A DNA stretch of 64,000 nucleotides from Octopus vulgaris (Eukaryota): assembly GCA_951406725.2 (NCBI GenBank), contig OX597831.1:83452001-83516000 (forward strand), read 5' to 3'. Position numbers and translations under genes: made by a program. Positions within the stretch are counted from its first letter, which is position 1, and each line of letters starts with the position of its first letter. The notes under the pieces were generated by a model. That model had not been told where the DNA came from, did not search any database, and saw nothing but the letters and a program-made list of their open reading frames with translations. Shown piece after piece: positions 10,229-59,388 of this stretch.

Positions 10229-10341
10229 ATATATATATATATGTATATAAAATATTATTAGAGACAAAACCACTATTTTGCAAAACAAACAAGGAAAGAC
10301 TTAATCAATACATAAAATTTTAATAAATAGTCAAAAAACCG

Positions 10342-10384
10342 CCACTACAATTGTTTCTTGTCTTGATCGACAATCTTCAGGTGG
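10342..10384 (-). ncRNA. Minimal type I hammerhead ribozyme (mirror copy)
   Basis: Exact reverse complement of 10432-10474. Confidence 0.8.
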
Positions 10385-10431
10385 ACTTCCAATAAGTCAG
10401 TTTCAAATTATGAAACTGACTTATTGGAAGT

Positions 10432-10474
10432 CCACCTGAAGATTGTCGATCAAGACAAGAAACAATTGTAGTGG
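10432..10474 (+). ncRNA. Minimal type I hammerhead ribozyme
   Basis: CCAC-CTGAAGA-TTGTC-gatcaa-GACAA-GAAA-CAATTG-TA-GTGG: stem I, CUGANGA core, stem II, GAAA, palindromic stem III, GUA cleavage triplet. Confidence 0.8.
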
Positions 10475-12799
10475 CGGTTTTTTGACTATTTATTAAAATT
10501 TTATGTATTGATTAAGTCTTTCCTTGTTTGTTTTGCAAAATAGTGGTTTTGTCTCTAATAATATTATATAATATTTTACTATAAAATTGGATTTAATCCT
10601 AAATCTGATTTTTTCCCTGTAAATTTGGATTTATTCCCTAATATTTATTATATATATATATATATATATATATATATATATATATATATATATGCATGCA
10701 TACATATACATACAGGCATATAAATATATACGCGCATGCAGAAACTTATGCAGATTCCTTCCAATTGCTCTTTCACATACTCTCTCTCTCTCTCTCTCTC
10801 TCTCTCTCTCTCTCTCTCTCTCTCTCTCTCTCTCTTATTTCAAAGCGCTATCAGTTTCCTCTCAGTATTTCAAATAACGTCACGATTTATCTGTTCTTCT
10901 CCTTGATAAGAATCCTCTTTTTCAGCGAGAAAATAGTTCTATTGAAAACTTTTCAAGTATTTGCAACCGCGTTACTGGAGCAGTTAATAGATGTAAACAT
11001 GTTGTGGTCGAGCGGACAGTCCATGAAAGGCAATGGCAGCTGACTGAGTAAAAATTCGAAATACTATTTGAAAGATCACCGATTTTCATCTTGAAATTGC
11101 TGCTACATTTACCAACAATAAGAATAAATGCCATGAGGTGGCACAACTTACTGTTGTCCACAGAAGGAGCACAACTGGTGCAGTGAGACATCAACACATC
11201 ATCATAGATTTAAGAGACATTGTTTATAATTTTATCTATTTAGGTTTCTTTCACTCAATTTTATTTGGATCAAAAACATTCCAACCACAGCCATCCCGGA
11301 ATTTGTGTGTGTATGTGTGTGTGTGTGTGTGTGTGTGTGTGTGTGTGTGTGTGTGTGTGTGTGTGTGTGTGCGTATGTGTATGGATAGATAGATAGATAG
11401 ATATATAGATAGATAGATAGATAGATAGATATTGCGTTCCATTAGCCAGCTTGTTAAGACGGTAAAGCTTGGTTTAAGGGAGTTTGGCTGCCGTATTTAC
11501 AAAGAGACTCCTCGGGAAAGTCCAGTGTGGCCGACACTCAAACATTTACATGGTATCTTTTAGCAGCCATTTTAACATCTATTTCTTTTCTCTTCTACTC
11601 TCCTCCACTTTCTTCTCTTTTCAGTTTTTTCTTTTACTTTTCAGGTTCTTCTTCCTCCCCTTGTCCTCCTCCCCACCCCTTCTTCTTCTTCTTCTTCTTC
11701 TTCTTCTTCTTCTTCTTCTTCTTCTTCTTCTTCTAATCCCTCTAATTTTTCCAGGGTTTCTTTATTCCCCCATTATTTTTGTAACTCTTTCTTTCCTCTT
11801 TCTTTTTTATTTCCCTTGTATTTACCTCCAGTTCTTTTAGTTCTTAATTATTTTCACAAATAATTCTCACTTTTATCTCCCAATGCCACTCTCACAACTT
11901 ATCACCGATATATTTTATGTCTTCTTTCCTTTACTATGTTTATTTATTTCATAATTTCAACTGAAAGACTTCTTCTTTTTTTTCTTTTCTTTTTTTTTTT
12001 CTTCAAACTAAGGTGAAATAGTTACTAAGCAACGAATAGTCTTCTCCAAAATTATGTGGGTAACATTTTCTACGTTCTTTGCTTTCTGAAATCAAAGCAT
12101 TCACATTAAAATACGAAATACAAAATTTATCGTTTTTATTTGTATATTCAACAGGAATTTGTTGTCTCCTCGAATACAATTTGTTTTGAGCTGTTCCTTT
12201 CTGCAAAATAGTCAGATCAGAAATGGCTTTCTTCTTCTTCTTCTTCTTCTTATTATTATTATTATTATTATTATTATTATTATTATTATTCTCCCCTCCT
12301 CCTACTACCAACCACATTATATCATTTGAAGTATTGCAGAGTATTGAACGCTGGAGCTCTTATCAATAGGATACAACGATGCCACTATTCACAGAAATTA
12401 TGGGATTTGGGCATCAAATAAAACACTCAATAATTTTGGTGTTCTTTCTCTCTTGATATTTGCTTCCACATGGAATTCATTTGCTCTTAGCTGGATGAGT
12501 CATTGATAGCCACACCAAAATGTAACACCTTCACACCAAGTGTCACTCTCCCGATTATCTCCCTTAAACTTCGCTCATCTTTAATATTTAAAGTTAAACT
12601 TCTATACTAGGAAGACGAAGAAGAATGAGAAATACTGTTGGATATATTTAAGTTGCTTCACAACGTTACCACAAAATATCTATCGATATATCTATTGATT
12701 AACAGAAGAAACTAAATAAACGTTAAATGGTTTCATAGATACAACTAACTACAAGATTAAATTCATTAAACAGTAATTTTAATATGTGAAGGGAGGAAT

Positions 12800-13030
12800 T
12801 ATATGAACTATAACATGTAAGAGGGTGCATGATAAATATATCATGAAAGAGGATGTATATATAAAATATACAATGCGATAGGGTATATATTAACTATATA
12901 ATGTAAGAGGATGTATAATAAACATATAATGCAAGAGGGTATACATGAACTATATAATGCAAGAAGATGTATATTAACCATATAATTTAAGAGCATGTAT
13001 TTGAAATATAGAATTTAAGGGGATGTTTTA
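12800..13030. repeat. Degenerate minisatellite, unit about 28-29 bp
   Basis: About 8 copies of ATATAATGYAAGAGGRTRTATATWAAC-like units. Confidence 0.7.
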
Positions 13031-56777: not shown

Positions 56778-56865
56778 CACCCACTCTATTGACAGACATG
56801 CGAGTCCATCTTTGCCCTGACTTATGGACTCTTAGACGACTCGTGCATATATATATATATATATA

Positions 56866-58820
56866 CTAGCTGAAGGTGACCCGCTCTACGCGCGGGTAAG
56901 AGTGTGGTTGTTACTTTCTGTTGCTTCCTTTCAGCACGTAAAAAGCACCATCCGAACGTGGCCGATTGCAGCGCCGCCTTGATTGGCTTCTGTGCCGGTG
57001 GCACGTAAAAAGCACCAACCGATCGTGGCCGCTGCCAGCTCCCCTGGCACCCGTGCCGGCGGCACAAAAAAAGCACCCACTACGCTCACAGAGTGGTTGG
57101 CGTTAGGAAGGTTATCCACCTGTAGAAACACTGCCAGATCAGACTGGAGCCTGGTGCAGCCTCCTGGCTTCCCAGACCCCGTCAAACTGTCCAACCGTGC
57201 TAGCACGGAAAACGGACGTTAACCGACGATGATGATGATGATGATGATGATGATGATGATTCTCCCTCTTTGTTTCTCTCTCACTTTCCCCACTCTCTTA
57301 CTCTTCCTTTCTCTCGGACTCTCCCTCGCTTTCTCTTACTCTCTATCTTTATCTATCTCTCTCCCATTTATAAACAACAAAAGATGTTGAGTAAGTTGAG
57401 AAATAAAATATTTAGAAAGATCAATCATAAATATCAGGCAGTAACAACGGAAAGGTCTGCTTCAAGGCAGACAGCAAAACACTAACATTTAAAAGGGACA
57501 GACGAACTTGCGAGCTGAATAAAAATAATAAAATATTGGAAACTAAAGTTTGAAGGGATAGAATCTGAGGATAGTAGAGTCACCATGGCTGGCATTTCTT
57601 AACGACGGATAGCAACGTTTTGACAGTTTAACGGCTGGCGTAAAATTTTGAACTTGATGTAAAAGAAAGTTCGTAAACACCAAGTTTTGAAGTGATTCTT
57701 TCTCACGACAGTAGACTCACCATGGCAAGCATTCAAAACTTCATCATGGACGGCAACACATTGACAATTAAAAGGCTGGCGCAAATTTTTTAGCTTGATA
57801 TAACAGAGAATTCCTAAACACCCGCTCCTTTAAGTTTTAATCCCCTTCCAGCCCCATTTAGACCCCTTTTCACATTTTGGTTAATATAACCCGATTTCAT
57901 TCGGGTCTACTGGGGCCACATTTTATAAGATGAGGAATTTTGTCCTAGAGGTCACGCTTTTCATTCGAGGAAAAAAAAAATAGTTGTCATGCAAACTTGC
58001 CAGCACTTTTAACATAGGTCTGCATATTTTCAGCTCAACCGACCACAAAATGCACACATTATATATATATATATGTGTGTGTGTGTGTGTGTGTGTGTGT
58101 GTGTGTGTGTGTTGGAGTCTCTGTCATACGTGAACGTTGACGCTGAATTCGACTGGTAAGCAGGTAACCTTGTCTTTGTTGAAATAGTTGTGAGCTGCTG
58201 GAGTTATTTCTCTGACGGGTAATAGGAATTTCCATATCCTCCGATGAAACGAATTGTTGACCCAGACAATTAGAATTAATTTTAATAAAATCATCAATTT
58301 AAGAAAAAATAATAAAGTAGTAAAAAATGAAAATTTAGCACGAAAAATTTGCAGGGTTCTAAATAAATGTTAAAATGTAATAGATACGAAAAACCTACGT
58401 TATCACCAGAACACGAACGCTCGTTGGCGTGTTCTGTTTGTATTTGCTCGATCGGCGCATTGACAGGCAGACAATAGAGTGCGATGGCGAGATTAATAAT
58501 ATTTGTTGTCATGATTGTGTGTTGGTGCTGGCGATGGTAATTCTCTCTATGAATGCAGACAGATACATAAAAGAAGGCCGTTTGAGGAAGTGAAAGTAAT
58601 GGGAATGTATGAAATAGAGTGAGTGAAAAAGTGCTGGTAAGAGAGGAAATAGCGAGAGTGAGTTGAGGAAGACAGATACATTAAAGAACGCGAGTGGGTT
58701 TTTGGCCCTAGCAACGTCACCTTTTTACATGTCCCTGTAAATTTTGGAGTCAATCGGACGGGATGTAGTGGCCTTGAAAGCGATCCAAGCGGTAAAAACG
58801 CATTTCAGTTTTATATATAT
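56866..58820 (-). mobile_element. Probable non-autonomous Helitron with nested SINE and internal repeats
   Basis: CTAG at 56866-56869 next to GC hairpin ACCCGC..GCGGGT (56879-56897); other end ..CAGTTTTATATATA resembles 62493-62509; continuity between the ends is inferred. Confidence 0.5.
56932..57260 (+). mobile_element. SINE with internal repeats and (GAT)n tail
   Basis: Three GCAC(GT/AA)AAAAAGCACC units; GGCGTTAGGAAGG.TATCCA.CTGTAGAAAC; GAAAACGGACGTTAA then (GAT)n. Confidence 0.75.
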
Positions 58821-58876
58821 ATATATATATATATATATATATATATATATATATATATATATATATATATATATAT

Positions 58877-59016
58877 GGACGCTCAGGAAAGGAAAGAAAG
58901 AAGGAGGATTTAAAGTTTCGAGCGGAGCTCTTCGTCAGAAACATAGGAAAAGGAAAGGTCCAAGGAAGGGAAGACGGAGAAAGAAAATCGGCAACGATAC
59001 TCACGTGGTCACATAT
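58877..59016 (-). mobile_element. Short hammerhead-bearing element (same family as 63427-63617)
   Basis: Minus 58942-58908: GTTT-CTGACGA-AGAGctccgCTC-GAAA-CT-TT-AAAT; abuts (TA)n. Confidence 0.75.
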
Positions 59017-59115
59017 TGAAAAAAATGAAAATATATATACCGGAGTAAGCATATAAATGTGAAATAGAGTATTAAAAAATAGTATTTGAATACTGGAGGT
59101 AGAGTAATATGCTTT

Positions 59116-59388
59116 ACAAAGACATCACAAAAGCTGTTACCGAGAGTTTCGCGTTCCCGTTCGTCGGACAGTTTGGGTTGAGAGTGGAACAAAATATGTT
59201 TATATTCATAAAATGTACAGTTACGTTTATAAATACACATTTAAAGATGGTCTTGTTCCATTGGTCGTTTAGTTGAAAGGACCAATTTATATTTATGAAT
59301 AGAGCCATATTTTGTTCCATCCTCCACCAAAACTGTCCGACGAATGGAAACGTGAAATTCTCGGTAACAGCTTTTGTGGTGTCTTTGT
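59116..59388. mobile_element. Imperfect palindrome (arms about 95 bp) with paired hammerhead-like motifs
   Basis: Plus 59333-59370 CTGT-CCGACGA-ATGgaaaCGT-GAAA-TTCTCGG-TA-ACAG; mirror at 59134-59171. Confidence 0.75.

Follow-up and report, generated by a model that had tools for sequence, protein, structure and literature searches.

In canonical endonuclease-containing (EN+) Penelope-like elements (PLEs), an insertion consists of a pseudo-long terminal repeat (pLTR), an adjoining inverted 5'-truncated copy and a one-sided tail (PMC8557442; PMC3846280; these and the papers below are cited for their accessible sections). In those sections it is left undecided whether the template is antisense or an unspliced RNA of sense polarity (PMC3846280), intron retention in PLEs is reported with its significance called unknown (PMC8557442), and intron retention and the formation of head-to-head repeats are stated as open. 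Penelope of Drosophila virilis has a leader intron and its transcripts are mostly spliced (PMC2377424), the intron end being located beside helix I of the hammerhead ribozyme (PMC4209133). Pairs of minimal hammerheads on opposite strands, ~100-700 bp apart, were read in Schistosoma mansoni as truncated PLEs (PMC4209133). In vitro, the protein of the Poseidon element PAc of Anolis, a predicted dimer, nicks and extends both strands at AT-rich targets, two internal RNA start sites define the tail and uncleaved RNA is used as template (PMC11167929). Here we analyse a stretch of 64,000 nucleotides of Octopus vulgaris DNA (contig OX597831.1; hereafter the window, with positions counted from its first letter), for which an earlier note had listed five inverted repeats, starting at 10251 (E1), 17170 (E2), 55012 (E3), 56343 (E4) and 59116 (E5). 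All five are present. With a probability of about 80%, judged from genomic sequence, these palindromes are head-to-head PLE ends, and E1 represents paired intron-free leader copies made by two reverse transcriptases (RTs) on one spliced sense RNA at a cut (TA)n target.

E1 consists of two arms that are 99% complementary over 160 nt. In the tail-less arm (10246-10414, minus strand), 21 nt of exon 1 (10414-10394) pass into exon 2 at 10393, and the hammerhead core lies at 10380-10346. The tailed arm, on the plus strand, starts with the final 12 nt of exon 1 (10411-10422), after which the GT donor of a ~1.83-kb intron comes next in the parent element, and runs from exon 2 to a short 3' end (10423-10570), so that the intron-free junction lies between 10422 and 10423. 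Its minimal type I hammerhead (10432-10474) is composed of stem I (10432-35 with 10471-74), core (10436-42), stem II (10443-58), GAAA (10459-62) and palindromic stem III (10463-68), with the predicted cut after 10470. The one-sided tail of ~80 nt occupies 10571-10649 (plus strand; in the parent, ~55 nt more lead up to the ATG) and is followed by a (TA)n target flank at 10650-10691, a second flank being present at about 10224-10245.

A 45-mer of the E1 hammerhead has 485 exact matches in the genome and none for the reversed control; all genome-wide counts refer to one assembly of 2.8 Gb in 227 contigs, and L-numbers denote the genomic loci examined. The first 100 of the 485 matches listed include 13 head-to-head pairs with a spacing of up to 110 nt and 9 with one of 0.5-9 kb; following up the long-spaced pairs led to the parent element. 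The linking of arms to full-length PLEs, proposed in the earlier note, was thereby achieved for E1: an intact RT-endonuclease element has this arm as its 5' leader, with open reading frames (ORFs) of 838-841 aa flanked by the E1 leader in L207, L210-L212 and L218. In the parent unit, exon 1 (23 nt) and a GT-AG intron of ~1.83 kb are followed by the hammerhead, the short end and the tail, then by ~55 nt up to the ATG of the 838-aa ORF and, after this, by a further ~1.7 kb; counted to the next exon 1, the unit amounts to ~6.3 kb. Directly after exon 1 stands GTAAGTATGT, and a U-rich tract with AG directly precedes exon 2. Partially tandem pLTRs together with an inverted 5'-truncated copy are seen at L219, L221, L224, L227 and L229. 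The protein contains the motifs DKT, CxCx5C, CxxC, CxH, YRDD and VYIG, by which the parent, a young element, is classed as a Hydra-type PLE with an RT plus, at its C terminus, an endonuclease of GIY-YIG type. In one copy of the ORF (L210:386-2905) a stretch of ~130 aa, 40% asparagine, is located between the RT and the endonuclease linker, similar to the N-rich inserts that have been described for Penelope elements of Adineta. Two exon 1 copies lie 1.1-1.7 kb apart in one terminal repeat at L222, L223, L228, L229, L231, L233, L236 and L238; these are internal duplications of the intron region.

The parent is not the only young element of this type in the genome. A second very young Hydra-type PLE (L140:3600-5750, G000:C10), found first by protein search, has 717-aa frames, 2.59-kb tandem units and many head-to-head pairs; it was tried as parent and is the parent of none of the five elements. 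Its ribozyme flank has 1434 matches; of the first 100 listed, roughly three quarters, as judged by eye, end no more than 30 nt upstream of the ribozyme. The loci L042:66-587 and L187:5111-5500 contain endonuclease fragments in which the Cys-rich linker is different; we take them to resemble Neptune-type PLEs. It is likely that PLE clades beyond those described are present in this genome.

In the arms of E1, exon 1 is fused exactly to exon 2 and the intron is precisely gone. Exact genome-wide patterns, each with a reversed control of 0, detect 325 intron-free junctions of this major form, 34 that use a second GT donor 4 nt downstream, 297 intron-bearing acceptors and 79 mini-palindromes in which both arms are intron-free. 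Upstream of the donor, 125 of 127 sampled intron-free arms match the parent for no more than 23 nt, 13 of them for exactly 23, and this limit coincides with the A of an initiator-like TCACTT. Intron-bearing exon 1 copies, by comparison, run at least 51 nt further upstream in 30 of 30 cases, and the leader is followed by the ATG in 12 intron-bearing copies vs none of the intron-free ones. A single intron-free palindrome (L193; G000:C2:107862500-107864100) passes the limit, in both arms and by about 50 nt or less; an upstream start and a spliced read-through RNA are candidate readings of it. The earlier note had recognised inverted PLE insertions as one option, which stands, but overlooked the splicing signature. 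This intron-free, single-template, start-limited class is the new part, and a literature search, its coverage stopping short of most subscription papers (among them the 2003-2006 Penelope papers) and of supplements, found neither intron-free PLE leader insertions nor twin priming on a single RNA described. Further look-ups for a PLE with a spliced leader gave either no match or LTR elements only.

Among the first 100 of 1078 E1 arms listed, 99 continue across the predicted cut site, and only one (L311:260-390) begins exactly there, with templated filler next to it. An accumulation of arms at the cleavage site was considered and is ruled out by this count, which suggests that mostly uncleaved RNA was the template. 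In 38 of the same 100 arms stem III reads CGATTG rather than CAATTG, a change that may be tolerable in a dimer through G-U pairs. Predicted folding places the hammerhead fold ~3 kcal/mol above the minimum in spliced and unspliced leader alike. The idea that splicing lengthens helix I and thereby turns the ribozyme on was also tried, and constrained folding gave it no support.

A plausible course of events can be proposed from these features. The A of TCACTT would be the transcription start, and the two 3' ends, short and tailed, would correspond to two RT start sites, by analogy with the in vitro work on another PLE. On a spliced mRNA these start sites would fall in the leader, where two RTs would copy about 165 and 245 nt. 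Both cDNAs would run off the 5' end of the RNA and then be joined via microhomology or short templated fillers and, since joining would follow run-off, the centre would be rebuilt at each insertion. Spliced mRNA primed in the leader would leave only dead-end stumps. Long copies would have read-through RNA that was not spliced as their template, with priming in the downstream repeat, and would keep the intron for that reason. The E1 family favours a template of sense polarity, for which its intron-free arms argue, and a single RNA behind each insertion. It is somewhat better than an even bet that E1-type insertions record the PLE mechanism itself, in which a dimeric RT-endonuclease would copy one sense RNA twice and fuse the cDNAs, spliced mRNA being trapped as leader stumps. 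If so, one rule would explain why PLEs in general have an inverted pLTR, carry a tail on one side and retain introns.

The structure of the insertions was examined in 51 pairs. Exactly one tail is present in 49 of these, two in one and none in one. TA-rich sequence borders 96 of 110 short ends as well as 106 of 117 tail ends, and target-site duplications are unreadable in E1 because its flanks are (TA)n runs. The second option of the earlier note, a self-propagating class of hairpin retrozymes in which the palindrome itself is transcribed and re-inserted, could draw on the abundance of E1 with its 79 exact mini-palindromes, on the recurrence of junctions (one is found eight times and two four times among the 51 pairs), on a short concatemer at L287 and on E3, which does belong to a tandem ORF-less family. 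Against this option, the 51 pairs have 35 distinct junction sequences at base level, a few being artefacts of truncated arms; four junction types occur in both orientations relative to the tail and the same junction is found on different haplotypes. The three single-nucleotide polymorphisms (SNPs) seen most often in the arms are likewise the most frequent ones among parent copies that bear the intron, which indicates that many source loci contribute. Centres of E3-E5 differ among copies by up to more than 1 kb, and the five elements come from unrelated families. We therefore regard self-propagation as largely refuted and very improbable; the centres of E1 appear to cluster at the putative RNA start and not by inheritance. 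In the L287 insertion (1150-1950), three ~107-bp repeats of rare-splice leader plus hammerhead are arranged in tandem, possibly the birth of a tandem retrozyme-like unit.

Whether one RNA or two served each insertion can be judged from markers that the arms have in common. SNPs common to both arms number 36, whereas 2000 shuffles with random pairing gave 4.6 and never more than 12; 39 of 75 SNPs are private to one arm. The rare splice form, from the second donor, makes up ~9.5% of intron-free arms and occurs on several haplotypes; in all 28 pattern matches the partner is of the rare type and in none of the major type, and 12 loci are double-rare. If two RNAs from a single source locus primed the arms and gene conversion in the hairpin homogenised them later, common SNPs would follow from the source locus, and the arm-private SNPs and a discordant pair at L293 would show that the arms sometimes differ. 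The 12 double-rare loci, however, would have a chance of ~5e-13 if the arms were independent, and conversion would have to be near-complete in very young copies, yet spare an asymmetric centre only a few bases away. This makes two RNAs quite unlikely. A single molecule would also be used if one cDNA, or the antisense template proposed as one option in PMC3846280, folded back at its end and copied itself into the second arm. Such self-priming accounts for common SNPs and splice form together, and exon 1 contains short self-complementary stretches, some junctions being perfect palindromes. The GT-AG intron, however, is removed in sense polarity, which is unexpected from an antisense template, and either arm may reach deeper into exon 1. 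In addition, the tail-only partners found beside tail-less arms at L022, L162, L172 and L270 cannot be self-copies, and the exact stop at the short end would require a separate cause. We consider fold-back copying unlikely and prefer two RTs on one spliced sense RNA.

Several observations weigh against this preferred mechanism. The case is read from genomic copies, with transcription start, splicing and cleavage all predicted, and the 127 arms and 51 pairs were selected by intron-free-arm or palindrome queries and are not a random sample. The contrast in leader-ATG continuity has only 12 positives behind it. The pair at L293, found among the 30 of 34 rare-form loci inspected, combines a rare-form arm with a major-like variant partner and escaped the exact pattern used for the pairing count; post-insertion gene conversion from arm to arm could be an alternative source of the common SNPs and splice form. 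No intron-free class was seen in E4, whose listed arms retain an acceptor-like site, or in the second young family with the 717-aa ORF. The RT and GIY-YIG labels of the parent rest on motifs and homology and not on a hidden Markov model: a Pfam search with the related 717-aa ORF and five fragments gave nothing above cut-off, and a PDB sequence search gave no match. A homologue search with residues 180-480 returned 5 matches, of which three carry PF26215, one carries PF28514 and none is named a PLE; sequences from Argonauta and Octopus are among them.

As for the ribozymes of the five elements, the earlier note had ascribed one hammerhead architecture to all of them. This is borne out in five of the ten arms (two in E1, two in E3 and one in E5), is seen in E4 only as the family majority and does not extend to E2. 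A strict type I hammerhead descriptor matches three arms, at 10436-10470 (plus), 10380-10346 (minus) and 59337-59366 (plus), compared to a mean of 0.03-0.1 and a maximum of 1 in 60 dinucleotide shuffles. A relaxed descriptor gives four matches, both arms of E1 and of E3, with a mean of 0.14 and a maximum of 2 in 100 shuffles. The arms of E4 fail both descriptors owing to a short stem I and, in the left arm, TG at the cleavage triplet; in the majority of 30 E4-family copies the core is intact, stem II is closed by G-C and stem III is palindromic. In E2, GAAA and stem I are missing from both arms. The full set of core, stems I and II and short palindromic stem III of the minimal type I hammerhead is thus found in both arms of E1 and the right arm of E5, in E3 under the relaxed descriptor and in E4 by majority only. 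That stem III is usually palindromic is correct for E1 and the E4 family majority, the E5 majority (CTCTGAG) being only near-palindromic. Between families the hammerhead stems differ completely and the core is constant. An Rfam scan of the window reported no hammerhead among 139 matches at E<=1, which are microsatellite-driven matches to miRNA models and further weak ones. The architecture holds for four of the five elements and is already published.

The one-sided tails noted earlier in several elements were found once each in E1, E3, E4 and E5, at 10571-10649, 55919-56045, 56778-56846 and, on the left side of E5, 59040-59111, which makes these elements longer than had been given. E2 (17170-17311) is an inverted repeat, weak and degenerate, in which a CTCTAGAG palindrome but no intact hammerhead is present; DNA and pattern searches of the genome returned only E2 itself, and it is at most an old decayed PLE end. 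The arms of E3 are 90-91% complementary. Its tail-less left arm (55012-55621, minus strand) has a hammerhead-like motif at 55595-55555, and its right arm (55657-56045, plus strand) has one at 55679-55719 ahead of the tail. Within the left arm, a tRNA-like SINE-type (short interspersed nuclear element) insert with a T-rich end (55183-55512, plus strand) is flanked by a 12-bp duplication (55171-82 and 55513-24) and is therefore younger than E3; Rfam gives a weak tRNA match at 55188-55257, under the gathering score, and ARAGORN found no tRNA at this insert. E4 (82% complementarity) has a tail-less left arm with a decayed hammerhead (56343-56566, minus strand) and a right arm (56577-56846, plus strand), the 3' end of an older PLE family, which includes a hammerhead core at 56681-56732 and an acceptor-like CAG (56601-03) as candidate intron 3' end. 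In E5 (88%) the tail belongs to the left arm (59040-59212, minus strand; tail 59111-59040), and the right arm (59292-59402, plus strand) is tail-less with its hammerhead at 59337-59366.

First-look candidates for relatives number 1313 for E3, 995 for E4 and 610 for E5, and the 40 scored per family are mostly 72-88% identical to the window copy. In 30 loci of each family the 3' end is fixed, the tail optional and the 5' extent variable; inverted partners of E5 start from about the query start up to 1357 nt upstream. Variable centres, which the earlier note had named as the sign of ordinary inverted PLE truncations, are therefore what the copies of E3-E5 display. Of 30 E4 loci, 9 have remnants of PLE ORFs upstream on the same strand, and the E4 arm lies downstream in 5 of the 12 top PLE ORF loci. 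For E5 such remnants were found in 3 of 30 loci (L094, L096 and L115, two of them near-duplicates), with a short same-strand PLE match at L104 as well. Four PLE protein queries found none upstream of E3 (0 of 30 loci); instead, the tail joins the head of the next unit in 8 of 30 loci, the unit being ~495 bp with no ORF seen. The upstream ORF remnants and the tail-to-head joining distinguish PLE ends from a retrozyme-like unit. E4 is the truncated end of a PLE, E5 is probably one too, and E3 is a member of a ~0.5-kb tandem, non-coding, retrozyme-like family. Very short inverted PLE insertions, the first option of the earlier note, are accordingly upheld by the E1 leader and by the ORFs found with E4. 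E4 and E5 appear to be older, randomly truncated products of the process seen in E1, and E3 may be the same kind of insertion with a tandem non-coding unit as template.

No PLE ORF is present in the window itself, and a DNA search with the AT-rich E1 tail returned zero candidates, missing its own copy too, and is hence uninformative. Short frames at 7016-7537, 30367-30810, 32789-33388, 51395-51757 and 62624-63019 presumably represent fragments resembling LINE (long interspersed nuclear element), LTR-protease and DNA-transposase sequences. Other repeats include a 93%-complementary palindrome at 36292-36603, centred at about 36447, which spans a microsatellite and unique flank, has no hammerhead and looks like a local inverted duplication. 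Terminal inverted repeats of ~60 bp (85%) at 13468-13913 enclose an inverted pair of SINE-like fragments, similar to a miniature inverted-repeat transposable element (MITE) and with no hammerhead. An 89-bp near-perfect AT-rich hairpin at 21507-21595 has no hammerhead motif, and at 35691-36884 two ~90-bp ends in inverted orientation (78%), separated by about 1.1 kb, possibly mark a decayed DNA transposon.

The E1 family is well suited to studying PLE insertion. Being young, and having two donors and a long intron in its leader, it offers natural markers of strand and template molecule in hundreds of insertions, and its intact ORF and defined RNA of ~250 nt are available for a direct test. Annotators should class palindromes of this kind neither as MITEs nor as retrozymes of a separate class: instead of matching ends and a constant interior they have a one-sided tail, variable centres and solo arms. 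E3 does resemble the animal non-LTR retrozymes, which are ORF-less head-to-tail hammerhead units (PMC7229834; bioRxiv 10.64898/2026.07.22.740005), its unit of ~495 bp being slightly over the 150-450 bp range given in the accessible text. E1, E4 and E5, in contrast, are not tandem units, and in E1 the arms end at exon 1 and only the one 107-bp concatemer was found.

By its motifs the E1 parent fits the Hydra clade as described in the accessible part of PMC8557442 in having DKT, the CxCx5C linker, CxxC, CxH, a hammerhead and (TA)n targets. It differs in having KWK for RWK and a unit of ~6.3 kb vs 'generally <3 kb'; the related 2.6-kb family with the 717-aa ORF has RWK. With the canonical EN+ PLEs of the same source and of PMC3846280, E1 has in common head-to-head arms, partial tandems, an optional tail, a leader intron in the pLTR, an initiator-like TCACT and an asparagine-rich ORF insert. 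The tails are longer here (70-165 nt vs 30-40 bp), and a 1.8-kb intron is accompanied by hundreds of intron-free leader-only insertions, for which the accessible text of the two papers contains no description. The two 3' ends of E1 match the two RT start sites of PAc, although those of E1 are deduced from its arms, the two elements belong to different clades and in E1 hammerhead and tail precede the ATG; cDNA joining and splicing lie outside the accessible sections of PMC11167929. A parallel in form is found in the pairs of S. mansoni, which like the elements of the window have opposite-strand hammerheads with a small palindromic helix III. The accessible text of PMC4209133 does not trace those pairs to spliced RNA, to a 5' limit that is fixed or to one template molecule.

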